Positions 38,898-59,186 are shown, numbered from the whole stretch's first letter. The stretch: DNA of 60,179 nucleotides, filler included, from 5 parts of 5 records of this genome joined end to end with filler, not necessarily neighbours in it; one strand, 5' to 3'. Translations and numbers: made by a program. The notes: a model not told the origin generated them from the letters alone.

Positions 38898-38928
38898 TGT
38901 CACACCAAAATGTTAGTCACCACTTACG

Positions 38929-39568: not shown

Positions 39569-39574
39569 AACCTG

Positions 39575-40975: not shown

Positions 40976-41022
40976 AAGCTCTCCCCTTATGGCGCGCAGA
41001 TTTTCATGTTCGCAGCCAATAG

Positions 41023-41053
41023 AAAAGGCCCGAACCAAAGGTTCGAGCCTTTT
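41023..41053. terminator. Terminator after DUF1476 gene
   Basis: AAAAGGCCCGAACC-AAA-GGTTCGAGCCTTTT. Confidence 0.75.
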
Positions 41054-41075
41054 AAAAAATCAACAGTGAGAAAGC

Positions 41076-41402: not shown

Positions 41403-41676
41403 CTTGGTCTCCGTGAAATAAACGGGGTTGCCCCCTAACAAAATCTCTTCCTCCGAGATAATGGCAAAAGGGGCGAAAATCAACGATTCTGCACAGCCAA
41501 CCCGCCGGAAAGTGCAATTTCGCGGCATTTGGCCGCCCAAATGGCCCAATTATCTTGTCCACAGCTTCCAAATCCCACAAAGAATGCGGTAATAATTCAT
41601 TAAAGGCTTGCATTTTACCCCCAAAAAGGGACATGAAGCAGCCATACATTACATTTCAGGAATCGTGGGTATTAAC

Positions 41677-42441: not shown

Positions 42442-42463
42442 TCAAAGATTGAGACGAAGATAA

Positions 42464-42706
42464 ATGCACGCACGCATATTTGTAACACTGAAAAATGGCG
42501 TACTAGACCCACAGGGCCAAGCAATTGAGGGCTCCTTGTCCAGCTTGGGTTTTGAAGGCGTAGACGCAGTTCGCCAAGGCAAAATCTTTGATGTGAAGTT
42601 GGACGAAACTGATCACGAAGCCGCAAAAGAAAAACTTGCGCAAATGTGCGAAAAGCTTCTGGCCAATACCGTGATTGAGAATTATTCCATCGAGATCGTG
42701 GACTAA
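42464..42706 (+). CDS. purS: FGAM synthase subunit PurS
   Basis: VLDPQG, VRQGK, LLANTVIENY. Confidence 0.96.
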   Translation: MHARIFVTLKNGVLDPQGQAIEGSLSSLGFEGVDAVRQGKIFDVKLDETDHEAAKEKLAQMCEKLLANTVIENYSIEIVD

Positions 42707-42744
42707 TTAACTACCAATTTTTTACCAATTGCGGCGACATTGTG

Positions 42745-42769
42745 GGAACAATGTGGCATCTGGTGCGTT
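42745..42769 (+). promoter_or_regulatory. EcfG (sigmaT/RpoE2)-type general stress promoter
   Basis: GGAAC-N16-CGTT. Confidence 0.6.
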
Positions 42770-42845
42770 GGATATTCAAATAAAAACGTCACAACAATAT
42801 GATAGGGACGGCACATACCTTTTATGGCCGAGCGAGTAAATTATT

Positions 42846-42932
42846 ATGATTAAACGACTTTCGCTAACAGCAGCCTTTTTCCTTGCGTTGGCCATCATGG
42901 CGGGAGCCTACGGCACTGTGCCAATTGCCTAA
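42846..42932 (+). CDS. Putative 28-aa hydrophobic small protein
   Basis: MIKRLSLTAAFFLALAIMAGAYGTVPIA*, between the EcfG-type promoter and a terminator. Confidence 0.5.
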   Translation: MIKRLSLTAAFFLALAIMAGAYGTVPIA

Positions 42933-42973
42933 GTAAAAATCTGGCGATATTTTGCCACAAATATGAATTTCTT

Positions 42974-42995
42974 AAGGGGGCCTCACGCCCCCTTT
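42974..42995 (+). terminator. Terminator-like hairpin
   Basis: AAGGGGGC-CTCAC-GCCCCCTT-T. Confidence 0.65.
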
Positions 42996-43144
42996 ATAGT
43001 TAATAAAATAAATAAATTTTTACGCTTTAAGCAGAATAATTAACCTCACTAATCAATAACCTACCGCTAACAAGCTGTATCCGTTCCTTTATTTACCTAT
43101 TCGCGCTATAAACCCGCAACTATATTTTGCGAGGGTGGACAAAT

Positions 43145-44221
43145 ATGGCAAACGCGAAACGAATGGACTGGGTGGACGCGGCCAAAGGGATTTCAATCCT
43201 ATTGGTGGTCATGATGCATTCAACTTTGGGCGTGGGGCAGGATGCAGGCCAAATCGGCTTTATGCATTATGCAGTGACCTACTCCGCCCCCTTCCGTATG
43301 CCTGAGTTCTTTTTGATCTCTGGCCTATTTCTCTCATATGTGATTGGACGTAGTTGGGGCAAATATGCGGACCGCCGCGTGGTTCACTATCTGTATTTCT
43401 ACGCGCTATGGGCCGTTATTCAGCTCTTCTTCAAAACAATCATCGCATCTGGTGATGTTGCAAGCTTTATCTCAGGCCTGTTCTTTGCGATTTTTGAACC
43501 CTATTCCATCTTGTGGTTCATTTACATGCTGGCCATCTTCTCAGCGGCCATCAAATGGCTTCACAACAACAGCGTACCGCATTGGCTGGTTTTGACGGTC
43601 ACAGCAATCCTACAAATGCTGCCTTCTCAAGAAGGTACAATCATCGGCTATTTTGCGGAATATTTCGTCTTCTTCTATGCGGGCTATGCGTTCGCACCGC
43701 AAATCTTCAAGCTGACAAGCTGGGCACAGAAAAATGCAGCTCTTTCCATTCTCGGCCTCTTGGTTTGGGCAGGTGTCAATTTCGGTCTTGTGTTCTGGCC
43801 AAATGCAGACATGCAGCCAGATCATGTAACCGCGGGTTACGCATCATTGCCCGGCATTCATTTGATCTTGGCCTTCGCTGGTGCCACTGCGATCTGTGTG
43901 TTCTCTGCCCTATTGGCAAAATTCAATATGGCAAAGCCTTTGGCGTGGATTGGAGAACGGTCTTTGGCGGTCTATGTGGCTTTCGTGATCCCGATGGCAA
44001 TCTTCCGCACCATCTTGTTTAAGCTTGGCATTATTTCCGATGTCGGCGTGATGAGCCTGTTGGTGATTATCGCTGCCGCCACGTCCTCTTTGATCGTCTA
44101 CGAGATCGTACAGAAAATCGGCTTTGGCAAATTTTTGTACGAACGACCTGAATGGGCAAAACTCGAGGCAGGCCGGGAAAAACCTGACCAAGCGATCAAA
44201 AACAGTGCTCCGGCTGAATAG
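43145..44221 (+). CDS. Acyltransferase-3 family membrane protein
   Basis: RMDWVDAAKGI.I.LVV..H, FRMPEFF.ISG, LWFIY. Confidence 0.9.
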   Translation: MANAKRMDWVDAAKGISILLVVMMHSTLGVGQDAGQIGFMHYAVTYSAPFRMPEFFLISGLFLSYVIGRSWGKYADRRVVHYLYFYALWAVIQLFFKTIIASGDVASFISGLFFAIFEPYSILWFIYMLAIFSAAIKWLHNNSVPHWLVLTVTAILQMLPSQEGTIIGYFAEYFVFFYAGYAFAPQIFKLTSWAQKNAALSILGLLVWAGVNFGLVFWPNADMQPDHVTAGYASLPGIHLILAFAGATAICVFSALLAKFNMAKPLAWIGERSLAVYVAFVIPMAIFRTILFKLGIISDVGVMSLLVIIAAATSSLIVYEIVQKIGFGKFLYERPEWAKLEAGREKPDQAIKNSAPAE

Positions 44222-44390
44222 TTTTTGAAAAAATCGAATATTTCTTTGAAAAAAGCGGCGCGAGACCTCTCGCGCCTCTTGCTTTTTGGGGGCTTTTTGA
44301 ACCATTAAGAGCCAAACCCAACCGCATCTTTTAAGCGCCCGTAGCGCAGATGCAAATTGTGCCTTTGCACACCGAAAAGGAATCACGCTC

Positions 44391-45080
44391 ATGAAGTCTG
44401 CAGTGATTGTCTTCCCCGGCCTCAACCGCGATAGAGACATGATCGCCGCACTTGAAAAAGTGACGGGAGAAAAACCACATCTAGCTTGGCACGGCGATAG
44501 CGACTTGCCAGACGTTGATTTGGTTGTGGTCCCCGGCGGTTTCTCATATGGCGATTATCTGCGTGCTGGCGCCATCGCAGCTCGCTCACCCATGCTTCAG
44601 CGGGTGAAAGAACATGCGGATCGCGGCGGATTGACTTTGGGCGTGTGCAACGGCTTCCAAATCCTCACCGAAACAGGCCTCCTGCCCGGCGCATTGATGC
44701 GGAATCGGGATTTGAAGTTTTTGTGCAAAGTGATTCATTTAAAAGCAGAAAACACAACTTCGCCTTTCACCAGCGCCTATAAGGGCCACGAGGCATTCCC
44801 ATGCCCTATCGCCCACCATGATGGCAATTACTTCATCGATCAGGATGGGTTGAAAGCGCTTGAAGATAACGGCCAAATCACTTTCCGCTATTGCGATGAA
44901 AACGGCAATGTCACCCTTGAAGCCAACCCGAACGGCTCCATTGAAAACATTGCAGGCATCACCAACAAGCAAGGCAATGTGTTGGGCATGATGCCTCACC
45001 CGGAAAACCTTATTGAAGCAGCCCATGGCGGCATTGAAGGCCGCTACATCTTTGACAGCTTAGTGGCAGCGGTGGCGTAA
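44391..45080 (+). CDS. purQ: FGAM synthase subunit PurQ
   Basis: [25 protein letters not shown]. Confidence 0.97.
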
Positions 45081-46514
45081 ATGTTGAAAAATCAGAATAT
45101 CGAAATCACCCCTGAGTTGATCGCCAGCCATGGCCTCAATGAAGAAGAATACGCCAAAATCCTTGAGCTGATTGGTCGCGAACCAACTTACACTGAGTTG
45201 GGCATTTTCTCTGCCATGTGGAACGAGCACTGCTCTTACAAATCCTCAAAGAAATGGCTAAAAACCCTGCCAACAACTGGCGACCGTGTAATCCACGGGC
45301 CAGGCGAAAATGCGGGCGTTGTGGATATTGATGATGGCCAGGCCGTGGTCTTCAAAATGGAAAGCCACAACCACCCATCATACATCGAGCCATACCAAGG
45401 CGCAGCCACAGGGGTTGGCGGCATTTTGCGTGACGTATTCACCATGGGCGCACGCCCGATCGCGGCAATGAACGCCCTGCGCTTTGGCGCACCAGATCAC
45501 GAAAAAACCCGTCACCTTGTGTCGGGCGTTGTGGCTGGCGTTGGCGGCTATGGCAACTCATTCGGCGTGCCCACTGTTGGCGGTGAAGTTGAATTTGACC
45601 CGCGCTACAATGGCAACATTTTGGTCAATGCGTTCGCCGCGGGCCTTGCTGATGCCGATAAAATCTTCCTTTGTGCGGCCAAAGGCGTTGGCTTGCCCAT
45701 CGTTTATCTCGGCGCCAAAACCGGCCGCGATGGCGTTGGTGGCGCCACCATGGCGTCTGCCGAATTCGGCGACGACATTGATGAAAAGCGCCCCACCGTG
45801 CAGGTGGGTGACCCGTTCACCGAAAAATGCCTGCTCGAAGCCTGCTTGGAGCTGATGCAAACGGGTGCGGTGATCGCCATTCAGGACATGGGGGCCGCTG
45901 GCCTCACCTGCTCTGCCGTGGAAATGGGCGCGCAAGGCAATCTCGGCGTTGAGCTTTATCTTGATGATGTCCCAACCCGCGAAGAAGCGATGACAGCTTA
46001 CGAAATGATGTTGTCTGAAAGCCAAGAACGCATGTTGATGGTGCTTGATCCTGAAAAAGAAGATGTGGCCAAAGCCATCTTCCACAAATGGGATCTAGAC
46101 TTTGCCATCGTCGGCAAAACAACTGACGATCTGCGCTTCCGCGTGATCCATGAAGGCACCGAAGTGGCCAACTTGCCGATTAAAGACCTAGGCGACGAAG
46201 CCCCTGAATATGACCGTCCGCGGTCAGCTTATCCGGCTCCGTCAGCTCTTGGCGAAATCGAAAGCAATATCGATGTTACGCAAGCCCTGTTGACCCTTGT
46301 GGGCAACGCCAACGGCGCATCACGCCGCTGGGTTTGGGAGCAATATGACCATTTGATCCAAGGCAATTCAGTGCAAGTGCCCGGCGGCGACGCTGGCGTG
46401 GTGCGCGTGGAAGGTGCAGACGGCAAAAAAGCCCTTGCCTTCTCCGTCGACGTGACGCCGCGCTATTGCGAAGCAAACCCGCGCGAAGGCGGCAAACAGG
46501 CCGTGGCCGAATGC
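45081..46514 (+). CDS. purL: FGAM synthase subunit PurL (3' truncated by contig end)
   Basis: [32 protein letters not shown]. Confidence 0.97.
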
Positions 46515-46614
46515 NNNNNNNNNNNNNNNNNNNNNNNNNNNNNNNNNNNNNNNNNNNNTTAATTAATTAANNNNNNNNNNNNNNNNNNNNNNNNNNNNNN
46601 NNNNNNNNNNNNNN
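46515..46614. other. Artificial contig spacer
   Basis: N/TTAATTAATTAA/N. Confidence 0.98.
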
Positions 46615-46636
46615 CAGGTGCGCAGTTTGACATTGC
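46615..46636 (+). repeat. 22-bp direct terminal repeat, left copy
   Basis: CAGGTGCGCAGTTTGACATTGC, identical to 54890-54911. Confidence 0.95.
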
Positions 46637-46735
46637 ATCCGCAGAGAATGTCCGCATTCCGCCCATACTGTGGAAAAAATCCTATTTGCGAGCGCAGAAG
46701 TAACTGTTCTAAATGCAGTGTGAACACCATTCTTA

Positions 46736-46840
46736 TCAAGCTTTTCGTGTTCGCTGCGGTGCAGGAAAAATCTTCACCAATCTGCGGAGGTTTTGGTCGG
46801 TTGCGGAGAGCAGGAATTCGTCATTTGCAACGTTTGGTCT
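46736..46840 (-). pseudogene. Transposase C-terminal remnant, probably IS1182 family
   Basis: Minus strand reads RPNVANDEFLLSATDQNLRRLVKIFPAPQRTRKA*, resembling the recalled DEFLLAATAQNLRKLAK tail; CTGTGGAAAAA IS-end-like sequence near 46668. Confidence 0.6.
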
Positions 46841-47168
46841 GATGAGGAGCTTCTGAGGCAGTTTGTGGAGACTGCGCCACTCTGGCGCTGAAGGCCTCCA
46901 GTCAGCCAACGGTTAGGGCGCGAGGCAACAACCACCCTGCCCGCAGGACTACGACAGCCTAAAGCACTCGTCGTGAGCTCGAGTCGTTGAGTTCGCCTTC
47001 CACGGCGACATAGGGGTGCGCCTGCAGCGAATTCACACTCCGTCCGCATGGCTGATCTTCGGACCTTCTTACGAGCAACGGGGCCGCACCATAGAACGAT
47101 GGGGCATCTTATGTCAGGTGCAGGACACCAGCATTGAGGCTAAAGCTGCCGCAGCCACTTTGATCATA

Positions 47169-48491
47169 TCACTTTAGTCTGTTCGCCGCCTGTTCCGGCA
47201 GCCAGGTCACAAGATCTGGGAAAATGACGAATAGGATTAATACGACGACCTGAATTATGAAGAAGGGGATCACGCCGCGATAGACTTGTCCGATACCGAT
47301 CCCTTCTGGCAGCACCCCCTTCAGGTAGAAGAGTGTATAACCAAAAGGAGGAGTGATATAGGCCATTTGCGCGGTGACCATGAAGAGCACTCCGAACCAA
47401 AGAGGGTCGAAGCCAAGTGTTTTGATGATGGGTATGAATACCGGGACGCAGAGCAGAATTATCCCAATTTCGTCCAGGAACAGGCCAAGAAAAATCAACA
47501 CCAGCAACATGGCCAGAAGCACCAAGTAGCGTGACGATTCCAGGCTTTGGACGAAGTTCAGCACGCTGTCTGCGCCACCCGTCGCCACAAAAACAGAGAT
47601 GAACGCCTTGGCACCCAGCGTGATCCAAAGGATCATTGCGGTGACACGAAGCGTGTCCGTGGCCGCGGCATTCAAGTTGGACAACCGCAAACGCCCAGAG
47701 ATAAGTGCCGATACCAAGGCACCCATCACGCCTACAGCCGCAGCTTCGGTCGGCGTCGCTATCCCTGCATAGATCGAGCCCAGGACCGACATGATGACCA
47801 GCGCGGGTAATACAAGATGCCGCAACGACGCCAGCTTTTCTGCGAGCGGGATAACGGCGGCATTCTGTGGCTCGGGCGCCAATTCGGGATTCAGCTTCAC
47901 CCGTACCCAGATGTAAACACAATAACCGAAAGCGAGGATCAGGCCGGGTACAACCCCTGCGATGAACATCTGACCAATCGAAATCTGCGCGGTGATTGCA
48001 TAAACGATCGTGACCACGGAAGGCGGGATCAAAATGCCCAAGGTGCCCCCGGCACAGATCGCACCCAAAGCCAGCGGTTGATTATAGCCCCGCGATAACA
48101 TTGACGGCAGAGCCAGGATACCCATCGCAGCGACCGCGGCTCCGACGACGCCCGTCATGGCTGCCATGATCGTGCAGATGACCACCGTGCCAATGGCCAA
48201 GCCACCGGACAAGCCGCCAAACCATGTCTCCATTGCCGCGTAAAGATCGTCGATGATCTGAGATTTCTGCAAGATTGCCGCCATCAGCACGTAAAGCGGA
48301 ATCGCCATCAGGGCTTCGGAGGTCATCGTCTCGAACGTGTTGAGCACGGTTACAATCAGAGCACTCGGACCCCAAAGCGTGGCTGTCGCCAGAAACGCGA
48401 TGGCACCCAGCACAAAAGCCAGCCCGGCACCGCTGAGCATGAGCACGATAAGAGCGGAAAACATCCCGACCAGAACAAGACTGCTTTCCAT
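47169..48491 (-). CDS. dctM: TRAP transporter large permease
   Basis: AIPLY, GTLGILIPPS, ATPTEAA, ITPPFG. Confidence 0.95.
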   Translation of the reverse strand: MESSLVLVGMFSALIVLMLSGAGLAFVLGAIAFLATATLWGPSALIVTVLNTFETMTSEALMAIPLYVLMAAILQKSQIIDDLYAAMETWFGGLSGGLAIGTVVICTIMAAMTGVVGAAVAAMGILALPSMLSRGYNQPLALGAICAGGTLGILIPPSVVTIVYAITAQISIGQMFIAGVVPGLILAFGYCVYIWVRVKLNPELAPEPQNAAVIPLAEKLASLRHLVLPALVIMSVLGSIYAGIATPTEAAAVGVMGALVSALISGRLRLSNLNAAATDTLRVTAMILWITLGAKAFISVFVATGGADSVLNFVQSLESSRYLVLLAMLLVLIFLGLFLDEIGIILLCVPVFIPIIKTLGFDPLWFGVLFMVTAQMAYITPPFGYTLFYLKGVLPEGIGIGQVYRGVIPFFIIQVVVLILFVIFPDLVTWLPEQAANRLK

Positions 48492-48979
48492 TACGCGGTA
48501 CGCCCTTTGAGAGCAAAGACAACTTCCGCAAGCGATTGCAGAATGAGCAAAACTGCTGCCAGTGGCAAGACGGTCTTGGCAGGCCAGATAACCGGATTCC
48601 AGGCAGAATAGCTGGTTTCACCGTATTCGTAGGCTTGCCATGCCAGCGGCAAGCTGAAACGCAGCAATATCAAACCAAAAAGCAACGCTAGCAGCGCCGC
48701 GAGAACGGCAAGAACCACGCGCAGCTTGCCTTGTGCAGTTTCGGAGAGGATATCGACCGCGACATGCCCGCCCGTGTGCAGCAGATACGGTCCACCCATC
48801 AGAAAGAAGGGGCCGAACAGCAAAGTAGCAAGCTCTGGGCCCCAACTGGTTGGAGCGCTAAACGAGTAGCGGGAGATCACCTCGAACAGCATGAGCGCAG
48901 CGATGACGTAAACGAGCCATTTGGTGGCCTCGAACGTCCAGCGATTGACTGTCGTGATTGCCTGTGCGGCACGTAGCAT
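48491..48979 (-). CDS. dctQ: TRAP transporter small permease
   Basis: EVISRY.F.APT.W..EL, GHVAVD; 4 TM segments. Confidence 0.93.
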   Translation of the reverse strand: MLRAAQAITTVNRWTFEATKWLVYVIAALMLFEVISRYSFSAPTSWGPELATLLFGPFFLMGGPYLLHTGGHVAVDILSETAQGKLRVVLAVLAALLALLFGLILLRFSLPLAWQAYEYGETSYSAWNPVIWPAKTVLPLAAVLLILQSLAEVVFALKGRTA

Positions 48980-49007
48980 CTTTGCACCTCCCCTTTTGTC
49001 GCAAAAC

Positions 49008-49034
49008 CGGCCTGCTGCACTGCTGCACAGGCCG
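49008..49034 (-). other. Intercistronic stem-loop after dctP
   Basis: CGGCCTG...CAGGCCG. Confidence 0.45.
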
Positions 49035-49056
49035 ACTTTTGTGGTGTCGTTTTGGA

Positions 49057-50112
49057 TCAGAGAAGTCTCAGATCAGCCATCAACTGTTTCTGGCTCTGCA
49101 TCATTTCGGTGGCCAACGCATCCCCGTTGGTCGCCTTTTCCCACGACGCGACTGCCTTGCCGCGTGATTGCGCAACATCCTCGGGGTCGAAACTGATGAT
49201 CTCGACGCCGGCATCTTCGAACTTGGCCAGATAATCCGCGTTGTCCACGATGATGTTCTGACGCAACGCACCGGACACCTCACGTGCAGCGACTGCAAGT
49301 GCCGCGCGTTGCTGGTCATTCAGCTGACCATACGCCGCGGTATTGGCCACGTAGCATGTCGCAGTGGACGGTTGATGAAAGCCAGGCAGGATCAGGTACT
49401 TGGCAACCTCATGAAGACCTTCTTCATAGTTGGCCTTGATGTCGCCCCGGTCCGCTAAATCGACCAGCCCCTTGTCTAGGGCGGAATAGACTTCGGATGT
49501 TGGCAGCGGCGATACGGCTACCCCGAAATCAGCCATGACCGCGGCAGCCAGACCGACAAAGCGGCCTTTCAGACCATTCATATCGGCAATTTTGCGGATC
49601 TCGACCTTCGAATGCAAAGGTTCCTCGCCGTAGACCGTAGGTGCAACATAGGTCAGACCAGCTGGCGCATATGATCTCGTCGCCATCTCCATGCCGCCGC
49701 GCTCATAGAACCACGCTTCGTACTGGTCGGCCTCAGGAAAACCAAACGGAACGGTGGACGAGAAACCGTGCGCGGGGATCTTGCCGGCTGTATAACCGTC
49801 AAAGGTTTTCATCAGTTGGAAGGCACCGCCGCGCACCGCGTCAAACGATTGTGCTGCGGGCACAATCTGACCGCCTGCAAACGGCGTGATGTCCAGACTG
49901 CCACCGGTCAGTTCGCGCACCCGGTCACAAAACTTCTCTTCGTACAACATTGGCGTTGTGCCACCGCCCCAAAGGGCTTGCATCCGCCATTGAATCGTCC
50001 CCTGTGCGCGTACGGAACTGGCGGCCACGATTGCAGGTGCAGCAAGTCCTGCAGCAGCCGCACCTCGAATGAATTGGCGTCGGCTTGATGGTGCCTTGAG
50101 TGTCTTTGTCAT
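49057..50112 (-). CDS. dctP: TRAP substrate-binding protein (TakP-like) with Tat signal
   Basis: SRRQFIRG twin-arginine signal, WRMQ, FDAVRGG, GLKGRF, EVYSALDKG; RBS AAGGGAGG. Confidence 0.92.
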   Translation of the reverse strand: MTKTLKAPSSRRQFIRGAAAAGLAAPAIVAASSVRAQGTIQWRMQALWGGGTTPMLYEEKFCDRVRELTGGSLDITPFAGGQIVPAAQSFDAVRGGAFQLMKTFDGYTAGKIPAHGFSSTVPFGFPEADQYEAWFYERGGMEMATRSYAPAGLTYVAPTVYGEEPLHSKVEIRKIADMNGLKGRFVGLAAAVMADFGVAVSPLPTSEVYSALDKGLVDLADRGDIKANYEEGLHEVAKYLILPGFHQPSTATCYVANTAAYGQLNDQQRAALAVAAREVSGALRQNIIVDNADYLAKFEDAGVEIISFDPEDVAQSRGKAVASWEKATNGDALATEMMQSQKQLMADLRLL

Positions 50113-50152
50113 TGGTCGTCCTCCCTTAAAATAGTCTTTGATCCGTGTGGCA

Positions 50153-51448
50153 CTATAGTTTTGCCAGCACGTCTTTTGCGGCCTGGACACTTACATGCCC
50201 TTGCGCGGCAATGGCCTTGGCCACCGCTTCGATCTGTGAGCCGGTGGCGCCCGCAAGAATTGCGATGTTACGGGCATGAAGTGCCATATGGCCCTTTTGA
50301 ATGCCCTCTGTCGCAAGCGCGCGCAACGCAGCCATGTTCTGTGCAAGTCCAACCGCAACCGTAACCTCGGCCAGTTCCTGTGCGCTGGAGACACCCAGCA
50401 CGCGAAGTACGGCCTGCGCCGCTGGATGCGTCTTGGTCGCGCCGCCAACCAGGCCAAGCGCCATCGGCATCTCGATTGTCCCGGTCAGCGCGCCGTCCGA
50501 GCCACGCTCCCACGTAGTCAAGGACGTATACCGACCGCTCCGCGCAGCCCAAGCATGTGCCCCGGCCTCGATTGCGCGCCAGTCGTTGCCGGTGGCGACA
50601 ACCACGGGATCGATTCCGTTCATCACGCCCTTGTTGTGGGTCGCGGCACGGTAAGGGTCGATCTGAGCAAGGGCATAGGCTTCTAGCATGCCGTCGATTA
50701 CGTCATGGCCTTCCATTGTCTTTGTCGTCAACGCTTCAGGCGTTAGCGTGACATAGGCGCGCGCAAGCCTGAGATCTGCCAGATTGGACAAGATTCGCAG
50801 ACGGGTATGCCCTCCTGAAATTTTCGCCACACGCGGTGCAATCGTCTCAGCCATGGAATTAACGGCATTGGCCCCCATGGCATCGCGCACATCCACAAGG
50901 ATATGTAACACAGCCATCGGCCCCACAGCCGAGGTTTCAAACACATGCACCTCGATCCCGATGCAGCCCCCGCCCAACGACACCAGCACCTCGTCACGGG
51001 CATTGCACATCTGTCGCAGCTCAGCCTCGGCGGCCAAAAGACGCTGCTTTGCGCCATTGGGGTCATTTAATCCGACAACTTGGATTTGCGCCCGCATTAT
51101 CGGCCGATCAGAGGAGGTGTGAAATCCACCGCAATTTCGCGCAATCTTGGCCATGTAAGAGGCGGCGGCAACAACGGATGGCTCTTCAACCACCATCGGA
51201 ATCAGATAGTCCTTACCGTTGATGGTAAAGTTCGATGCCACCGCGAGGGGCAACTCGAACTTACCGATGACATTCTCGATCATTCCGTTCGCCAGCGACA
51301 GCGGCAATACATCGTCCCCCGCCAACGCCGCCCGATCCGCATCATCCAATCCGACGGTCTTCGCCACCAGATCCAGCCGTTGTTCTGGTTCAAGGTCGCG
51401 CACGTTTTCAAGCCGCGAACTGATCGGCGAAGTCGTTGTATTCGTCAT
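50153..51448 (-). CDS. mvaA: Class II (degradative-type) HMG-CoA reductase
   Basis: [39 protein letters not shown]; 431 aa from MTNTT. Confidence 0.95.
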
Positions 51449-51540
51449 CTCGATGATGCCCCCCCTGCTTTCCAGATTGATCTTTCGCTTAATCCCAAGG
51501 CGGATGATAGGTACACTTGGTGAATACAGTGTTATCCTGT

Positions 51541-51560
51541 ACTGGTACTTTAACTGGTAC
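51541..51560. promoter_or_regulatory. Direct repeat, probable MocR operator
   Basis: ACTGGTAC-TTTA-ACTGGTAC between divergent mvaA and regulator. Confidence 0.65.
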
Positions 51561-51575
51561 AATTGAGAGCTTTCT

Positions 51576-52943
51576 ATGACCAAGACAACGAATATCGTGC
51601 GGCGCCTCGTCGAGGACATTGCCAATGGCACCCTGAGCGCCGGAGAACGCCTGCCCTCCATCCGTTCGGCTGCCGTGGAACAGGGTGTATCGAAAAACAC
51701 GATCGTCGAAGCCTACGACAGGCTGGTTGCGCAGGGGCTGATTACCGCGCGACACGGCTCGGGATTTACCGTGGCGGCGCCCAATCAAACGATACGGGAA
51801 GAAGACGTCCCGCGACATCTGGTTGAAGCGGTGGACAGTATTTCTCTGCTACGCGCGCAATTGGACCAGAATTATGCTGTTCGAATCGGAGATGGTCGAC
51901 CACCTGCTTTCTGGATGGCAGGGATTCCGATGCGAAATCTGCCGGAGCTTCGGAGCGAAACCGGAAATGACACGTCGGGCTACGGCTCACACATGGGATA
52001 TTTGCCGCTGCGCACCCTGATCGCAGCTCGACATAACGCCGATGGCATCGTAGTCACTTCTGAACAGATCGTGACGACCTTCGGCTCAAATCACGGCCTT
52101 GACCTGATCGTACGACGCTATCTAAAGCCAGGCGATACCGTCCTGGTGGATGACCCGGGTTATTACCCGCTATTTGCCAAACTACGCTTTTCCCAAATAA
52201 ACTTCGTCGGAGTGTCGCGCGGCCCAAATGGCCCTGATCTGAACCAATTGCGAAGTCTGGCAATCGAGCATCGCCCAAAGCTTTTCTTCACACAGTCGCT
52301 GGCGCATAATCCAACAGGGACCTCGATGGATTTGGCGACGGCTCACGGCGTGTTGAAGCTCGCCGAGATTATGGATTTCATTGTTGTTGATGACGATCCA
52401 TTCGTCGATCTTCCAGACCCGAAAGGTGTGCGGCTGGCAATGTTGGACGGATTTGACCGCGTCATATTCGTGGGTACGTTCTCCAAAACTTTATCCGCGT
52501 CGTTTCGCACAGGCTATATCGCCGCGGCCCGCAGCATTACCGAAGAGCTGGCAGAACTGAAAATGATCACCACCGTCAATTCGTCTCGCTTCGCCGAAAT
52601 GATCGTTGCCGAAATGATTCAAAGCCGACGCTATGCCCGACACCTCAAAAAGCTGGCTGGACGGCTCCGGAACGCGTCTGAAAAGCTGCAAGGCGATCTC
52701 GCGCTGCTTGGCCTGCATTGCAAAGTGCCACCCGGCCAAGGGTATTACGCCTGGTTAGACCTGCCCGACGGGGTCAGCGACACAGAGTTGGCTAAAAAAG
52801 CCGCTGCAAAAGGAATTTTCCTGGCACCGTCGAGCTTCTTCTCCGTTCAACCGTCAGGCAGGCCAGCGGGAATGCGGATCAATGTGACCCGCACCGGCGA
52901 CCCAAGATTTTTGAGATTTCTGAAGCATGAATTTCAACGGTGA
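51576..52943 (+). CDS. MocR/GabR-subfamily GntR regulator (wHTH plus aminotransferase-like domain)
   Basis: GERLPSIR...[31 protein letters not shown]. Confidence 0.94.
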
Positions 52944-53180
52944 ATGCAATATTCTTGGTTGGAACGACAACGGAACCCACCACATTGAAATGATCAAGGG
53001 CCGGTGATCTTTGTAATGTGCAAGGGTTGTTGCCAAGGTTGGCGTGTAACACTCTGCCGCCACGCGAACATGAACACGAGTGAGCATTTAAACTGGCCTC
53101 GGTTCTCCATCGCATTGTCTACGCAAGCTCACGCATTTCTCCGTCAGAGCGTGCAACTCAACTTGAATCCCACAAAATAA

Positions 53181-53206
53181 CATCCATATACCATCCATAC
53201 AGATGG
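53181..53206. promoter_or_regulatory. CATCCATA direct repeats, candidate CopG-type operator
   Basis: CATCCATA at 53181 and 53192 plus inverted GATGG just before the ATG. Confidence 0.5.
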
Positions 53207-53216
53207 AGAAACGGTT

Positions 53217-53633
53217 ATGGCCGAAGTAAGACAAATCCGGGACAAGCAACCCGAGAACGAGAAGATCACCATCAATCTCGGCTTCGTCGACCTCGGTCGC
53301 ATTGATCTGCTGGTGCAGGAGGGGTTCTACTCGAACCGCAGCGATTTCATCCGCACCGCGATCCGCAAGCAACTCGACACGCATGGAGAGGCTGTCGACC
53401 GCACCATCGAGCGCCATACCATGGAGCTCGGCCTCAGAGACTTCGGCCGGGCGGAGCTCGAACAGCTTCGCGCGTCCGGCGAGGTCCTGCACATCAAGGT
53501 GGTGGGCCTCGCGCGCATCGCCTCGGACGTCACGCCCGACCTCGCTCGGGCGACCATCGGCTCGATCACGGTTCTCGGCAGCCTCCAAGCCTCCGCGGAC
53601 ATCAAGAAGGCTCTTGCCGACCGCATCCAGTAG
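53217..53633 (+). CDS. CopG/ribbon-helix-helix regulator
   Basis: EKITINLG.VDLG.IDLLV.EGFYSNRSDFIRTAIR. Confidence 0.88.
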   Translation: MAEVRQIRDKQPENEKITINLGFVDLGRIDLLVQEGFYSNRSDFIRTAIRKQLDTHGEAVDRTIERHTMELGLRDFGRAELEQLRASGEVLHIKVVGLARIASDVTPDLARATIGSITVLGSLQASADIKKALADRIQ

Positions 53634-53659
53634 CGGCGGCCCTCACAAGGACGAAACAG

Positions 53660-54727
53660 ATGATCAATTTCAACGTCGGCGCATGGCGCCAGGCGGCAGG
53701 GCAGTCGCGTGCCGCGCAACTTGCTTCCACCAACGACCTCGTTGCCCGTACGCTTGCGCAACACGGCCTCACTGCCGGTTCGATGTCCGGGCTCCCCGGT
53801 GGCGAGGCGCTGCCTCAGGCCCTGTCCGGCCTGATGTCCCGGCTTCAGTCTCAAGGTCCGGCCTCGAAAACCGTGGACATTCCCAACGGCGCGCGCTTTG
53901 CCGAAGACAGATTTACCTGCGCCGCAGGGACGCGCCGTTATCGCACCTATGTGCCGGCCTCGGCGCAGGAGGGGGTCATCGGCCTCGTCGTGATGCTCCA
54001 CGGCTGCACCCAGACGCCCGAGGATTTTTCCGCCGGAACTGGCATGAACGCCTTGGCCGAGAAACATCGCTTCGTCGTCGTCTATCCGCAGCAATCGCGC
54101 GGAGACAATGCCCAGTCTTGCTGGAACTGGTTCAGCCGGGGCGACCAGAAGCGGGACCGCGGCGAGCCCGCCATCCTTGCCGGCCTGACGCGCGAGGTCA
54201 TCGCCCGCCATACCATTCCGGAAGATCAGGTTTTCGTGGCTGGCTTGTCGGCGGGGGCTGCGATGGCCGTCATCCTTGGCGGGGTCTATCCGGACGTGTT
54301 CAAGGCAGTGGGCGCCCATTCCGGTCTTCCTGCAGGATCGGCCAAGGACGTCCCCTCCGCCTTTTCGGCTATGGCCGGACGCGAAACCGTAAGCGCTGCG
54401 CGCACGGCGGCCACCAGGTCCATCGTCTTCCACGGCGATGCCGATGCCACAGTTCACCCGTCGAATGGCGAACAGATCGTCCGGCAGGCACTCGAAGGCG
54501 GGCCGGGTCAGAGCCTTCAAATCGAGGATGCGGGTACTGGGGGAGGTCGGTCCTATCGGCGCTCCACGACCTACGATGACGCCGGTAGGGAAGCGGTGGA
54601 ACACTGGGTGATCGAAGGCCTCGGACACGCATGGTCGGGCGGACAATCTGCAGGCAGCTATACCGATCCGAAAGGTCCCGATGCGAGCACAGAGATGGTC
54701 CGTTTCTTCTTCTGTCCCTCGGCCTGA
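53660..54727 (+). CDS. PHB depolymerase-family esterase (LpqC-like)
   Basis: MLHGCTQ, CWNWF, GLSAGA, FHGDAD, GHAWSGG. Confidence 0.92.
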   Translation: MINFNVGAWRQAAGQSRAAQLASTNDLVARTLAQHGLTAGSMSGLPGGEALPQALSGLMSRLQSQGPASKTVDIPNGARFAEDRFTCAAGTRRYRTYVPASAQEGVIGLVVMLHGCTQTPEDFSAGTGMNALAEKHRFVVVYPQQSRGDNAQSCWNWFSRGDQKRDRGEPAILAGLTREVIARHTIPEDQVFVAGLSAGAAMAVILGGVYPDVFKAVGAHSGLPAGSAKDVPSAFSAMAGRETVSAARTAATRSIVFHGDADATVHPSNGEQIVRQALEGGPGQSLQIEDAGTGGGRSYRRSTTYDDAGREAVEHWVIEGLGHAWSGGQSAGSYTDPKGPDASTEMVRFFFCPSA

Positions 54728-54889
54728 GCCTTGGCATTAGTGTGATTACTACTCTGACCGGTCGTTATAAAGGTGAAACTGCGCGCCCGTTACTGTCGGT
54801 ATAGGCAGAGGCTTAAGGCTCGAACCCGAACTTCGCTGCGGCTACACCTCAAAAGATGGTCCGTTCCAGCATTGAATGTCAGCTTCCTT

Positions 54890-54911
54890 CAGGTGCGCAG
54901 TTTGACATTGC
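54890..54911 (+). repeat. 22-bp direct terminal repeat, right copy
   Basis: CAGGTGCGCAGTTTGACATTGC. Confidence 0.95.
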
Positions 54912-55011
54912 NNNNNNNNNNNNNNNNNNNNNNNNNNNNNNNNNNNNNNNNNNNNTTAATTAATTAANNNNNNNNNNNNNNNNNNNNNNNNNNNNNNNNN
55001 NNNNNNNNNNN
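54912..55011. other. Artificial contig spacer
   Basis: N/TTAATTAATTAA/N. Confidence 0.98.
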
Positions 55012-55273
55012 CTTCTCCTGCTCGACCGCGTGCCCGTCTTACTGGTGGAACTCCGACCGTTATCTCGGCCCGGCTGTTCTGTTGCAGGCTTATCGTTGGC
55101 TGGCTGACTCGCGTGATGAATATACCGGTGAACGTCTCGACGCGCTCGAAGATCCGTTCCGCCTGTATCGTTGCCACACGATCATGAACTGCACCAATAC
55201 CTGCCCGAAAGGCCTGAACCCGGCATTGGCGATCACCGAAATCAAAAAGATGATCGCAGAACGCCGCGCCTGA
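55012..55273 (+). CDS. sdhB: Succinate dehydrogenase iron-sulfur subunit, C-terminal fragment
   Basis: [29 protein letters not shown]. Confidence 0.95.
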
Positions 55274-55314
55274 TCGGCTTAGACCATAAAAAAGTCTTTT
55301 TAAGACAAAAAGTT

Positions 55315-55351
55315 AAAGCCGCCGGAGATCTGATGATCCCGGCGGCTTTTT
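55315..55351 (+). terminator. Intrinsic terminator after sdhB
   Basis: AAAGCCGCCGG...CCGGCGGCTTTTT. Confidence 0.8.
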
Positions 55352-55416
55352 CTGTTTTAATACTGTTTATAAAGACAACCTGACCCGAACAATCGGGCAC
55401 GAGCAAAGGCAAACCG

Positions 55417-57123
55417 ATGAAAAAAGCGCATTGGCTGTTCCCCCTTAGCGGCGCGGCATATGGCTTCGCATTCTGGTATCTGATCGATTATCGCTGGGAG
55501 GATGACTATCTTCTGGTGAGTCTGATGACTTTTATTGCCGCACTGGCCTATTGCAGCTGGTTTGCCATTGGCGTGCGTCGTCTGCGTGATGATCTTGCGG
55601 TGACGTTTGTTTTACCAACCCTCGCAGCCCTTCAGGTGCTGGCATTTCAGCATCTGGTCGGGTTCGATCATACCGATGATGCCGCCATTTTAGGTTTGCT
55701 CGCCTGTCAGGCGTTTTGGGTCGGGCTTGCTGTCGCCATATGGCGGATATGGGGGCCGTTGCAGACGACTGTTTTACCAAACTATCCGGATCGGGCGGCA
55801 CTGGTGCCCGAAATCTGGTCAATCAAGCTGGCATTGGCATTTGGTTTGGTCGGGGTTGGTGTCGTCTGGCCCGTTCTTTATGCCTTGTCTTCGCTGTTTA
55901 TGCTGGTGGGGATCGACCAGATTTGGGACCTGATCAGTGAGGCGTATGTTGCGATGCCCCTTTCGGGGGCGGCTTTTGCCACAGGTATCCTCATTGCGCG
56001 TGAAAAATCGGGGCTTCTGATCCCGGTCCGCCAGGTGATTGGCGGAATGTTCCGCATTCTTTATCCGATTCAGGCTCTGGGGCTTTTCCTGTTTCTGATT
56101 GCGGCGGCATTGGGTGGCTGGGAAGTTCTGCTGGATCAGGAATTTGGTGTCTGGTGGACCGTGATGGCCGCCGCAGCAGGGTTAAGTTACCTAATGTTTG
56201 GGGCGGTGCAGGCAGGCGAAGGTGTAACCTTGTTTGGCCGGATCGGTGATCGTGTCTTTCGCTTTACATTGTGGATGGCACCGATTTTTGCCCTGATTGC
56301 GATGGCAACGATTTATATCCGGGTGCGTGAATACGGCCTGACCCCATCGCGGATTTATGCGATCTGGGCGGCGGTATTTGTCTTGATGGCGACGATATGG
56401 CTTTCGGTGGCGGCATTTGGCCGTCGCCAGTCAACCCCGGTATCGTTGCGCCGGGCTTTTGGTCATATTGCCATTTGCGGGACCCTGACGGCCTTTATCA
56501 TACATCTGCCGTTGCTTGACCCGGTCAGCATTTCGGCGCGAAATCAGCAAAGCCGTCTTTTGTCGATGGCAGACTGGGACAAGGCTGACCTTTCTTTCAT
56601 TGCCCGAAATCTTGGAATGCCGGGCGAAAAGGCACTTGCTGAACTTGACGCGGCAAAACCCGACACGGTGCCGCCACTTGCCGAACTGCGCAGCTATATC
56701 GATCCTGATGCCGGACGGATGATGGTCGAAATTGACAATATTCCGGTTTATCCTGCGGAATATCGCGTGCCTGGGGAAGCCGTAACCAGATTGCTTGAAG
56801 CACAGCTTGAATATGATCGCCGCTTCTGTCGCAAGGAAGGTTCAGGCACAGGAACCCCGGACCAGTGCGCATTGTTGCTGGTCGATCTTGACGGCGATGG
56901 AATGGAAGAAGCAGCCTTTTTCACGGCGCGTGATTATGTTGATATCTATCGTTATGAGGTCGCGGATGATGATTGGCAGATTGTGACCAGTTTCTTCCAT
57001 GGCCAGAACGAAATCGACCATGCGGCAATGTTGCGTGATCTTGCCGATGGTAATTTCAAAGCGGTTTCGCCCCGCTATTCCGATCTTTTGATCGGTGGGG
57101 TGCAGTGGGGCCAGTATCGTTAA
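55417..57123 (+). CDS. DUF4153-like inner membrane protein
   Basis: Many TM segments, RVREYGLTPSR, LDPVSISARNQ, C-terminal DLDGDG. Confidence 0.75.
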   Translation: MKKAHWLFPLSGAAYGFAFWYLIDYRWEDDYLLVSLMTFIAALAYCSWFAIGVRRLRDDLAVTFVLPTLAALQVLAFQHLVGFDHTDDAAILGLLACQAFWVGLAVAIWRIWGPLQTTVLPNYPDRAALVPEIWSIKLALAFGLVGVGVVWPVLYALSSLFMLVGIDQIWDLISEAYVAMPLSGAAFATGILIAREKSGLLIPVRQVIGGMFRILYPIQALGLFLFLIAAALGGWEVLLDQEFGVWWTVMAAAAGLSYLMFGAVQAGEGVTLFGRIGDRVFRFTLWMAPIFALIAMATIYIRVREYGLTPSRIYAIWAAVFVLMATIWLSVAAFGRRQSTPVSLRRAFGHIAICGTLTAFIIHLPLLDPVSISARNQQSRLLSMADWDKADLSFIARNLGMPGEKALAELDAAKPDTVPPLAELRSYIDPDAGRMMVEIDNIPVYPAEYRVPGEAVTRLLEAQLEYDRRFCRKEGSGTGTPDQCALLLVDLDGDGMEEAAFFTARDYVDIYRYEVADDDWQIVTSFFHGQNEIDHAAMLRDLADGNFKAVSPRYSDLLIGGVQWGQYR

Positions 57124-57179
57124 CGCCTGCCTAATCGGGACAGGCTATGCTTTGTCATCACATGAAACAGCATCAGGGA

Positions 57180-57956
57180 ATGACTGCTTTGTTGATCCGG
57201 ACACATCATCTCATTGCGGGCCTGGCCCTTCTAACGCTGGCGGCCTGCGGCGATACCTCTGCGAAATGGGAGCCCCAGGATATGTTCGCAAGCCCGGCGG
57301 AAAAGCCGATTGACGAACGATACCGGGCGATGATCGATTTCAAGGCGCTATCGCGTGACGATGCCGGGGTTGAATATGCCGCCGGGCCGAGCGCGACCGT
57401 TCTGGGCGCGGTGGAAGAATCCGTTGCCCTTTGTCAGGAAAAGGGTGGCAAGGGATGCAAGGCGGTCCGTGTCGGTCTGACATGGGTTGATGGTCTTGAT
57501 AGCGATGCCATCAAGGCGGTGATGGAAACCTATCGCAACACCATGCTGGCAGAAGCAACGCAGGCATCGAATGCGGGGAATGCCGGTGCGGCGAACTGGC
57601 TTGCCTTCCATTATGCGGTTCGCGGTGAAAATTTGGGTGAAGCAGAACGTCTGATCAAGCGTGCCTTGCAGGTTGCACCCGATGATCCCGGTGCGCTCGA
57701 TACTTACGGGCTGGTGCTTTATAAGCAGGGCAAATATCAGGAAGCAGAAGAGATATTTGTGGCTGTAAACAAGGCAATGCCGACGGCTGAACATCTTGCG
57801 CATTTTGCCGACAATGCCCTTGCGATGGGCAAAACCGAAATGGCACGCGCGGCTTATCAGCGCGCCCTTGAGGTGCAGCCAAGTGCGATGCTGTCACAGG
57901 AAATCCAGAAACGGTTGCTTGCCCTTGATCTGGGTGGCGGCGCGGCAACACAATGA
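57180..57956 (+). CDS. TPR-containing lipoprotein
   Basis: Lipobox LAAC, ALDTYGLVLYKQG TPR repeats; start uncertain. Confidence 0.8.
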   Translation: MTALLIRTHHLIAGLALLTLAACGDTSAKWEPQDMFASPAEKPIDERYRAMIDFKALSRDDAGVEYAAGPSATVLGAVEESVALCQEKGGKGCKAVRVGLTWVDGLDSDAIKAVMETYRNTMLAEATQASNAGNAGAANWLAFHYAVRGENLGEAERLIKRALQVAPDDPGALDTYGLVLYKQGKYQEAEEIFVAVNKAMPTAEHLAHFADNALAMGKTEMARAAYQRALEVQPSAMLSQEIQKRLLALDLGGGAATQ

Positions 57957-58630: not shown

Positions 58631-58669
58631 TCGAAATCGATCAGGGTGCGGTGTCTTCGCGGTCCGATA

Positions 58670-59182: not shown

Positions 59183-59186
59183 AGTC

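Follow-up and report, generated by a model that had tools for sequence, protein, structure and literature searches.

Closest described systems

Catabolism of mevalonate via HMG-CoA reductase (HMGR) and HMG-CoA lyase has been known from Pseudomonas mevalonii for decades, and both physiological transport studies and an H-NS-like activator, MvaT, are on record for this organism. Its mvaAB operon pairs an NAD-dependent reductase (MvaA) with a lyase (MvaB), and the organism grows on mevalonate (PMC7503714, available part). Related oxidative class II HMGRs occur as orphans in B. cenocepacia (6p7k), D. acidovorans (6dio/6eeu) and R. pomeroyi; the available parts of the literature deal with them as catalysts or drug targets and do not go into a neighbouring transporter or regulator. 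The literature searched describes no mevalonate TRAP system and no gene-level bacterial mevalonate importer or its regulator, in agreement with the first-pass annotation, which knew of no characterised mevalonate TRAP transporter.

Here we describe a five-gene cluster in which an HMGR gene is joined to genes for a TRAP transporter and a MocR-family regulator, and which is probably a self-contained mevalonate utilisation cassette. Its carrier is a roseobacter-type marine bacterium. The cassette would be a variant of P. mevalonii-type mevalonate catabolism: the two reductases are alike in type (E 6.5e-167 against 1qax) and the inferred route is the same, from mevalonate to HMG-CoA and on to acetoacetate and acetyl-CoA, but unlike mvaAB the cluster has no lyase gene and brings a TRAP importer and a MocR regulator of its own. 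The orphan HMGRs fall in the same clade as our reductase and share its preference for NAD(H). MocR is likewise divergent at the B. cenocepacia locus, with the operator motif shared, whereas the genes downstream are TctB/TctA-like rather than dctPQM.

Layout of the cluster

The window (the whole stretch of DNA analysed, 60,179 nt) consists of five contigs joined by N44-TTAATTAATTAA-N44 linkers, and the cassette lies on a single contig of 8,297 nt (46615-54911). Pfam and NCBIfam profile searches identified the five genes that had been proposed from the sequence and bore out their arrangement, with the MocR gene divergent from hmgr-dctP-dctQ-dctM (Table 1). The gaps are short, as claimed: 40 nt between hmgr and dctP, 77 nt between dctP and dctQ, and a 1-nt overlap of the dctQ stop with the dctM start (TAATG), where a GGGGAGG ribosome site can also be read. 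Two start sites were revised. For hmgr, GTG 51700 was replaced by ATG 51448 (431 aa). For dctP, the end of the ORF at 50190 (ORF 49057-50190, minus strand) gave way to ATG 50112 (351 aa), which is backed by an upstream GGGAGG ribosome site and from which homologues align from residue 1.

Table 1. The mevalonate cassette candidate and its control region, in window coordinates.
Feature	Position	Strand	Length and profile matches
dctM, TRAP large permease	47169..48491	-	440 aa; PF06808 274 bits; TIGR00786 315 bits (cut-off 268)
dctQ, TRAP small permease	48491..48979	-	162 aa; PF04290 86 bits
dctP, TRAP periplasmic solute-binding protein, candidate mevalonate receptor	49057..50112	-	351 aa; PF03480 149 bits; NF037995 80 bits
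hmgr (mvaA-like), class II NAD-type HMG-CoA reductase	50153..51448	-	431 aa; TIGR00532 405 bits (cut-off 260); PF00368 357 bits
Divergent control region, GTAC-box operator sites	51449..51575	.	127 nt, hmgr/mocR intergenic
GTAC-box site GGTACACT	51510-51517
GTAC-box site CCTGTACT (inverted)	51536-51543
GTAC-box site GGTAC	51544-51548
GTAC-box site GGTACAAT	51556-51563
MocR-family regulator	51576..52943	+	455 aa; PF00392 + PF00155

The cluster had been called a plug-in, and the comparison with its nearest relatives (G256, L119, L120, L122 and L124) agrees with this portability, in that homology stops exactly at the boundaries of the five genes. The first-pass annotation had also pointed to the absence of lyase and mevalonate pathway (MVA) genes from the contig. 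A tblastn search found HMG-CoA lyase nowhere in the window, so the absence of the lyase stands; its weight as evidence does not, since on a contig of only 8,297 nt missing MVA or lyase genes count for almost nothing. The contig also encodes an extracellular-type PHB depolymerase (53660-54727), 0.7 kb past mocR.

The reductase is of the degradative, NAD-dependent type

Over its full length the HMGR matches the class II 'degradative' model TIGR00532 above the curated cut-off. It is ~60-70% identical to four solved enzymes entered in the PDB as HMG-CoA reductases, 9v7y, 6dio (Delftia), 6p7k (B. cenocepacia) and 1qax (P. mevalonii), with E-values of ~1e-167 to 1e-180 (entry identities: PMC10070635, available part). 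Residues E89, R267, K273, N277, D289 and H387 align with P. mevalonii E83, R261, K267, N271, D283 and H381, and these catalytic residues are invariant across 173-175 homologues. In the P. mevalonii enzyme D283 is catalytic, and R261 and N271 are substrate contacts, R261 for the substrate carboxylate. D152 aligns with the D of RKDQL in 1qax, the NADP(H)-excluding position of the P. mevalonii enzyme, its NAD-specifying Asp146. The roles of Glu83, Lys267 and His381 are given in the available part of PMC7503714.

The R. pomeroyi relative oxidises mevalonate in vitro, with a preference for NADH that is set by its equivalent aspartate (D154 in that paper's numbering; PMC12292504, available part). 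A check for NADPH specificity, which together with a full MVA pathway in the host would have spoken against scavenging, placed the window HMGR in the NAD type: the Asp146 equivalent is kept and the R. pomeroyi relative uses NADH. By analogy with what is printed for that relative, the window enzyme is predicted to catalyse the NAD+- and CoA-dependent oxidative acylation of mevalonate.

Of the 401 Rhodobacterales genomes sampled, 16 have an HMGR of the catabolic type. In the HMGR tree the B. cenocepacia sequence (L044) falls within the same 76-row clade as ours (SH-like support 99). Two of the three closest HMGRs, L001 (84%) and L002 (82%), have neither TRAP nor MocR genes adjoining.

Linkage between the binding protein and HMGR is conserved

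Seen from the side of DctP, the association that had been proposed from this one locus is conserved. A DctP orthologue was found in eight of the 401 Rhodobacterales genomes (58-89% identity), directly adjoining an HMGR gene in all eight, and among 80 metagenome loci with DctP (55-94% identity) HMGR was present in 70, the other 10 ending on the relevant side; where at least 1,400 nt were available on both sides, the count was 56 of 56. Gene order was hmgr-dctPQM at 20 of the metagenome DctP-HMGR loci, dctPQM-hmgr at 48 and otherwise arranged at 2, and the two main orders pair with two HMGR subclades. The DctM of the window shares 76-94% identity with its counterparts in HMGR-linked clusters. 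Because this DctP clade is bound to HMGR without exception, it offers a directly testable candidate.

These counts (8/8 and 56/56) contradict the idea that the adjacency is due to chance or local convenience, with the TRAP system serving some other pathway, such as one that takes up the 3-hydroxybutyrate set free by the PHB depolymerase. The presence of the depolymerase gene on the same contig would fit such a role, but that gene is not conserved beside the module, since G256 and the five nearest metagenome loci have unrelated flanks, and we regard this explanation as extremely improbable.

A survey of 80 loci from the HMGR side places several transporters beside the same HMGR clade: this TRAP system at 9 loci, TctB/TctA-like genes at 19, a Peripla_BP_6 solute-binding protein (SBP), of ABC type, at 12 and a second TRAP type at 3. 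These neighbourhoods, which come from different lineages, show non-orthologous transporter replacement. The commonest enzyme neighbour is HMG-CoA lyase, which lies within 6 kb of HMGR at 20 of the 80 loci. An SMP-30 lactonase, plausibly a mevalonolactone hydrolase, belongs to the cluster at five of the 80, and some HMGR clusters have a family III CoA-transferase and an enoyl-CoA hydratase in place of the lyase.

Carrier genomes make isoprenoids by another route

The first-pass annotation had suggested looking in the host for lyase and the MEP pathway, and had named a full MVA pathway as an argument against scavenging; both were examined in carrier relatives. Dxr was present in five of five carrier genomes, mevalonate kinase in none of the five, and HMG-CoA synthase above cut-off likewise in none. 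The carriers rely on the MEP pathway, and there is no sign of an MVA pathway in them. HMG-CoA lyase was found in all 10 carriers, either adjoining dctM or elsewhere in the genome. It adjoins dctM in L003, L006, L015, L034, L039 and G295, and a truncated remnant sits there in L024; a lyase within the reductase operon is absent from the window and from the surroundings of the module in G256. Going by these relatives, the window's own host probably has both the lyase and the MEP pathway.

This background bears on whether the cassette could instead be anabolic, with imported mevalonate feeding isoprenoid synthesis or the reductase making mevalonate from leucine-derived HMG-CoA. Gram-positive bacteria use class II HMGRs for biosynthesis, and those at the Anaerolineae loci found here adjoin thiolase, HMG-CoA synthase-like and DUF35 genes; the HMGR reaction is also reversible in vitro (PMC12292504, available part). 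Yet the carriers lack the kinase and the synthase in the counts above and have Dxr, the window HMGR keeps its NAD-specifying aspartate, and the recurrent neighbour is the lyase rather than kinases. SBP-dependent TRAP systems, moreover, are importers and would not export a product. An anabolic or salvage role is therefore very improbable.

The TRAP transporter and its ligand

TRAP transporters comprise a family 7 SBP, a small 4-TM subunit and a large 12-TM subunit, and in the SBP a conserved arginine clamps the carboxylate of the substrate. All three components are encoded together here (PF03480, PF04290, PF06808) by contiguous, coupled genes. The DctP N-terminus carries an export signal, SRRQFIRGAAAAGLAAP...AQG, including SRRQF, in which a twin-arginine motif was identified by eye. 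Its nearest solved relatives are the lactate-binding TTHA0766 (2zzv, E 1.7e-57) and then the keto-acid binders 7ug8 and 2hzk, with E-values extending to 1e-26. These TakP/TTHA0766-type SBPs belong to the same DctP family and bind small monocarboxylates; unlike them, the window DctP belongs to a separate, HMGR-linked clade, and the similarity is distant. Homology to such distant relatives (lactate or 2-oxo acids, best E 1e-57) therefore gives a ligand class, small monocarboxylates, and not the ligand. The HMGR-linked clade is sharply bounded: across the 401 Rhodobacterales genomes, E<=1e-60 was reached solely by the eight HMGR-linked proteins.

The same architecture could in principle serve a related hydroxy acid, which would be imported and oxidised to its CoA thioester by the HMGR homologue. 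Examples would be another 3,5-dihydroxy or 3-hydroxy-3-methyl acid, or an amine-bearing analogue sensed by the PLP-type regulator. The ligands of the solved SBPs are compatible with this, an invariant PLP lysine in the regulator (see below) suits amine effectors better than mevalonate, and the clusters with CoA-transferase and enoyl-CoA hydratase in place of lyase hint at chemistry beyond the mvaAB route. We nevertheless consider another substrate improbable: every aligned catalytic residue is kept in the window HMGR, including R267 opposite P. mevalonii R261; the enzyme is close to four PDB enzymes named HMG-CoA reductase; the activity of the R. pomeroyi enzyme with mevalonate is in print (PMC12292504, available part); and the commonest enzyme neighbour is a lyase specific for HMG-CoA.

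The comparative evidence, drawn from gene content and alignment, strongly supports mevalonate scavenging as the probable function, and each check suggested in the first-pass annotation that lends itself to computation turned out in its favour. As the cassette is most likely for mevalonate uptake and breakdown, there is a strong case for the importer, with DctP as its receptor, as a candidate natural transporter of mevalonate.

A possible route and its implications

We suggest that DctP would be exported via the Tat route and bind free (R)-mevalonate in the periplasm, and that DctQM would import it with an ion gradient as the driving force. In the cell, HMGR would run in the oxidative direction (mevalonate + CoA + 2 NAD+ -> (S)-HMG-CoA + 2 NADH), and an HMG-CoA lyase of leucine degradation, encoded elsewhere in the genome, would cleave HMG-CoA to acetyl-CoA and acetoacetate. 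The divergent MocR would control both promoters through the GTAC-box sites of the intergenic region.

If this is true, mevalonate joins the plankton-derived substrates used by roseobacters, and it becomes clear why MEP-pathway bacteria such as B. cenocepacia retain HMGR. A natural high-affinity importer with a matching transcription factor and operator would aid isoprenoid pathway engineering and biosensing. It is possible, if on balance doubtful, that marine and soil communities trade in free mevalonate or its lactone as a metabolite, and that bacteria unable to make it have repeatedly built portable import-oxidise-cleave cassettes around one HMGR clade, with at least four unrelated transporter types and a shared PLP-dependent MocR that senses a nitrogen-free hydroxy acid.

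The MocR regulator and its operator

The regulator combines a GntR wHTH domain (PF00392, residues 5-66) with an aminotransferase-fold domain (PF00155, residues 127-437), in which K304 of GTFSKTL aligns with the PLP-lysine FSK motif of aminotransferases 1x0m and 3aov and is kept in all 113 HMGR-adjacent homologues. It scores below the NCBIfam cut-off of every named equivalog (PdxR, GabR, EhuR, PtsJ, rhizopine MocR, YczR), the best being PdxR (205 versus 320 bits), with EhuR at 134 versus 480 and GabR at 96 versus 600. With GabR, PdxR, TauR and EhuR/EnuR it shares the MocR architecture (wHTH, aminotransferase fold and PLP lysine), divergence from the target operon and an operator of short repeats; it differs from them in that its target operon would handle a nitrogen-free compound and in scoring below all equivalogs.

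Apart from PLP itself, characterised MocR effectors (GABA, taurine, ectoine derivatives) are amines. It speaks against mevalonate as the signal that the PLP lysine is kept whereas mevalonate has no amine. If this MocR does sense a nitrogen-free hydroxy acid, it would bring new effector logic to the family, and the locus would be a ready-made mevalonate importer and biosensor. No link between MocR and HMGR is described in the literature searched; the main text of a MocR regulon survey (PMC5320631, available part) mentions neither mevalonate nor HMG, and its supplementary tables may list the group.

MocR and HMGR genes are divergent at 42 of the 80 loci; these span Alpha-, Beta- and Gammaproteobacteria and also include a Gordonia. 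The direct-repeat operator reported for the window is present (ACTGGTAC at 51541-51548 and 51553-51560) and belongs to a larger operator whose conservation extends across phyla. Allowing at most one mismatch, the motif ACTGT[AC]CC / GG[TG]ACAGT has 110 sites in 41 MocR-HMGR intergenic regions versus 15.9 +/- 3.9 in shuffled controls (200 shuffles), and 39 of the 41 regions hold at least two sites. The spacing in the window, 20 nt + 26 nt, is that of L024, L027 and L034.

Gene content of the cassette

The fourth contig carries a gene for a MocR-type regulator, divergent from genes for a class II HMG-CoA reductase (HMGR) and for the solute-binding protein (DctP) and the small (DctQ) and large (DctM) permeases of a TRAP transporter (see the table). 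The first-pass annotation had described this five-gene cassette from the DNA alone, and its description is borne out by Pfam and NCBIfam profile matches, by the start codons read from the DNA and by tight gene junctions. The refined starts give proteins of 431 aa (HMGR) and 351 aa (DctP); that of DctP is preceded by GGGAGG and followed by a twin-arginine signal, and its homologues match from residue 1. Gaps of 40 nt and 77 nt separate hmgr from dctP and dctP from dctQ, and a TAATG marks the overlap of dctQ with dctM. A scan of the 8.3-kb contig, which we regard as uninformative, gave eight promoter-like sites (3.7 ± 1.9 in shuffles), none of them between the MocR and HMGR genes, and no terminator-like site after dctM.

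Features of the window, with the basis on which they were assigned
Feature	Position	Strand	Basis or remark
Contigs 1 to 5	1-23000; 23101-31416; 31517-46514; 46615-54911; 55012-60179		split by linkers
Linkers	23001-23100; 31417-31516; 46515-46614; 54912-55011		N44-TTAATTAATTAA-N44
Toprim-like/DUF3991 protein	25148-26098		contig 2
purQ	44391-45080		contig 3
purL	45081-46514		follows purQ; ends at profile position 465 of 723
Identical 22-nt ends	46615-46636; 54890-54911		contig 4
Nucleotide homology to related loci	47168-52926		the five genes
DctM	47169-48491	minus	Pfam/NCBIfam
DctQ	48491-48979	minus	Pfam/NCBIfam
DctP	ORF 49057-50190; ATG at 50112	minus	Pfam/NCBIfam; start read from DNA
Class II HMG-CoA reductase	ORF 50153-51700; ATG at 51448	minus	TIGR00532 'degradative, NAD' equivalog, 405 bits (cut-off 260); start read from DNA
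HMGR residues 158-163	50661-50678	minus	differ from solved relatives
Operator box	51510-51517
Operator box	51536-51543		inverted, 2 mismatches
Operator box	51556-51563
MocR-type regulator	51576-52943	plus	Pfam/NCBIfam
Extracellular type-1 short-chain PHA/PHB depolymerase	53660-54727	plus	NF050058, 324 bits

A reductase of the degradative type

The reductase matches four solved enzymes (9v7y, 6dio/6eeu, 6p7k and 1qax) at E-values of 1e-167 to 1e-180; excerpts of PMC10070635 assign 6eeu to Delftia acidovorans, 6p7k to Burkholderia cenocepacia and 4i64, whose sequence is the same as that of 1qax, to Pseudomonas mevalonii. Its residues E89, R267, K273, N277, D289 and H387 align with P. mevalonii E83, R261, K267, N271, D283 and H381, and D152 with the aspartate of the RKDQL motif; none of the seven positions varies among the 173–175 homologues that cover them. 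We take this aspartate to be P. mevalonii Asp146, to which the exclusion of NADP(H) is due, and the labels R261, N271 and D283 are likewise presumed. Loss of the NAD-specifying aspartate had been guessed from GGGC-IG-IEV in the window versus GGGC-RD-IEV in the solved enzymes; the guess was rejected, since Asp146 corresponds to D152, which is kept. Residues 158–163, which differ from the GGGC-[RK]D-IEVH found in 4/4 solved relatives, are a site other than that aspartate. Roles for E83, K267 and H381 are given in a section of PMC7503714, and, according to extracts of PMC12292504, the Ruegeria pomeroyi HMGR works with NADH and hardly at all with NADPH, and it oxidises mevalonate when given NAD+ and CoA.

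Linkage of reductase and transporter

Seen from the binding-protein side, the coupling is tight. DctP matches at E ≤ 1e-60 occurred in eight of 401 sampled Rhodobacterales genomes (58–89% identity), and in all eight the gene lies directly downstream of that for HMGR. A metagenome scan returned 80 DctP loci (55–94% identity, 73 distinct DctP sequences), 70 of which contain HMGR; the ten that do not are all cut off on the expected side, and where at least 1,400 nt were present on both sides HMGR was found in 56/56. The HMGR–TRAP linkage noticed in the first-pass annotation is thus conserved. Two gene orders were apparent: MocR<>hmgr-dctPQM in 20 metagenome loci, with HMGRs 67–92% identical to that of the window, and MocR<>dctPQM-hmgr in 48 of the 80, with HMGRs mostly about 50% identical to it. 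The coupling therefore outlasts rearrangement and spans two reductase subclades, which favours function over inherited synteny as its cause, and we consider it extremely improbable that the adjacency is mere chance. The second order, sometimes extended by a lyase gene, occurs in L138–L198 (metagenome loci), whose DctPs are 56–68% identical to that of the window; in L142 an SMP-30 lactonase gene lies between mocR and dctP.

From the reductase side the neighbourhoods are more varied. We took the best 80 HMGR loci from a scan in which each species was represented by one genome and identified neighbours within 6 kb by tblastn with the window proteins and cluster representatives, checked against Pfam. 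The same DctPQM (62–83% identity) lies directly downstream of HMGR in nine of these best 80 loci. Further neighbours are TctB/TctA-like genes (19 loci), a binding protein of the Peripla_BP_6 type (12) and a second type of TRAP system accompanied by an FCD-GntR regulator (three), together with an HMGL-like lyase (20), a family III CoA-transferase (13) and, within the cluster itself, an SMP-30 lactonase (five). A divergent MocR gene is present in 42 of the 80, and the MocR-bearing loci span Alpha-, Beta- and Gammaproteobacteria and one Gordonia, B. cenocepacia included. None of these transporter, regulator, lyase, lactonase or CoA-transferase neighbours was found in 16 loci from Anaerolineae and one archaeon; in those checked, the setting of HMGR is instead biosynthetic, with HMG-CoA-synthase-like, thiolase and DUF35 genes beside it.

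Two further neighbourhoods were observed. A gene of the SMP-30/gluconolactonase family, encoding a candidate mevalonolactone hydrolase, ends the hmgr-tctB-tctA clusters of L013, L019, L023, L037 and L057. In L009–L012, L016, L017, L036, L041, L066, L067, L069 and L160 the reductase gene is followed by those for a family III CoA-transferase and an enoyl-CoA hydratase, often also with a Peripla_BP_6 binding protein and in some cases under a PucR/GAF regulator rather than MocR; these clusters suggest that the route around HMG-CoA is extended or differs there.

A FastTree phylogeny of 105 distinct HMGRs (SH-like support only; L039 and L061, too short, omitted; three duplicates merged) places all transporter- or MocR-linked sequences except L066, L067 and L069 in one 76-row clade (support 99). 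The neighbours of the window HMGR in this tree are that of G256, a Rhodobacterales genome carrying the TRAP genes, and those of L001 and L002, which lack both TRAP and MocR, L001 having a convergent SBF/BASS transporter gene. The TRAP label requires at least three changes on the tree; the pairing has therefore been gained or lost repeatedly.

Among the 401 Rhodobacterales genomes, 29 encode a TIGR00532-type HMGR. Sixteen of these are at least 66% identical to that of the window: eight with this TRAP system, two with TctBA, one with the second TRAP type, three with only MocR (as judged within 1.5-kb flanks) and two with none of these. The other 13, at 47–53% identity, belong to a second subclade (L093–L101, L106, L109, L111, L112, L114 and L116), in which no MocR or transporter gene was found within 1.5 kb; in both loci checked a gene with an AMP-binding (acyl-CoA synthetase-like) Pfam domain lies upstream. 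A biosynthetic role for these reductases is unsupported, mevalonate kinase being present in 0/5 of their genomes.

Regulator and operator

The regulator combines GntR and aminotransferase-fold domains, and none of the named MocR equivalogs in NCBIfam matches it above cut-off. In alignments with the aminotransferases 1x0m and 3aov its GTFSKTL falls on their PLP-lysine motif, and this lysine is kept in 113/113 HMGR-adjacent MocR homologues. MocR-type regulators are known to respond to amines or to PLP, and mevalonate is without an amine. The motif ACTGT[AC]CC / GG[TG]ACAGT occurs at 110 sites (at most one mismatch) in 41 MocR–HMGR intergenic regions, against 15.9 ± 3.9 expected from 200 shuffles, with at least two sites in 39 of the 41. 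The three boxes of the window are spaced by 26 nt and 20 nt, as in L024, L027 and L034, and the direct repeat ACTGGTAC, proposed as an operator in the first reading of this DNA, overlaps two of them.

Metabolic background and proposed mechanism

We examined five carrier relatives, G256, G370, G295, G001 and G003. The closest, G256, is 84% identical to the window in HMGR, 89% in DctP, 81% in DctQ, 88% in DctM and 71% in MocR. Dxr was found in 5/5 carriers tested, mevalonate kinase in 0/5 and HMG-CoA synthase above its cut-off in 0/5; HMG-CoA lyase (NF004283) scored above cut-off in 10/10, its gene adjoining dctM in some carriers and lying elsewhere in others, such as G256. From Dxr, kinase and lyase together it follows that the MEP route supplies the isoprenoids of carriers, which are unable to phosphorylate mevalonate and able to cleave HMG-CoA; an anabolic or salvage role for the cassette seems very improbable to us. 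The window encodes no HMG-CoA lyase, so that the absence of a lyase noted in the first reading stands, but as an argument the lack of lyase and mevalonate-biosynthesis genes is weak, because the contig is only 8.3 kb. In the complete genome G001 (locus L024), a lyase fragment follows dctM (12238–12645 of the locus, G001:C1:486822-487229), covering positions 3–138 of the 300-position profile, and two full-length HMG-CoA lyases are encoded elsewhere; the fragment appears to be a redundant copy in decay.

In the mechanism that we consider most likely, and quite probable as judged from sequence comparison, periplasmic DctP would capture mevalonate, DctQM would import it, HMGR would oxidise it with CoA and two NAD+ to HMG-CoA, and a lyase encoded elsewhere would cleave HMG-CoA to acetyl-CoA and acetoacetate, with MocR gating expression via the GTAC boxes. 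Mevalonate scavenging, as first proposed, is well supported. That the real substrate is a related but different hydroxy acid is unlikely, though the least improbable of the alternatives we weighed. Our literature search turned up no published account of a TRAP system for mevalonate, of a gene for a bacterial mevalonate transporter or of a connection between MocR and HMGR. Bacterial mevalonate import systems are said to exist in passages of PMC12405511, which give a mutant MCT1 as the only known importer, and the main text of a MocR regulon survey (PMC5320631) mentions neither mevalonate nor HMG. Relative to known mevalonate catabolism, the predicted importer specificity, the regulator and the portable cassette would be new.

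Portability and contig context

Nucleotide homology to G256 and to the metagenome loci L119, L120, L122 and L124 (at most 82% identity) is restricted to the five genes, and the flanks are unrelated between the window and G256 or the nearest metagenome loci; the PHB depolymerase gene therefore adjoins the cassette by chance. A tRNA-linked island is unsupported, since the window yielded no tRNA gene; no Rfam family was found on the 8.3-kb contig.

The 8,297-nt contig has the same 22 nt at both ends. The first 30 nt of the contig are covered in runs X1–X3 by a single 38-nt piece with two reported placements on the stretch, and in X1 its depth is about 2x; from the arithmetic of 8 + 22 + 8 nt, we interpret this piece as a join between the end of the contig and its start. 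A seawater-metagenome contig makes the same join, and other pieces, bearing mismatches, branch off both ends. Either direct copies of a short dispersed repeat flank the segment, or the segment is a cycle.

The GC content of contig 1, which encodes Mfd, MetG, Tex and M28/M13 peptidases, is 0.349, versus 0.51–0.57 in the other four; given this gap and gene content, the record may mix two organisms. Disruption of purL by the cassette was ruled out, since the gene is cut by the end of contig 3. Contig 2 encodes a Toprim-like/DUF3991 protein, a type common on plasmids and conjugative elements.
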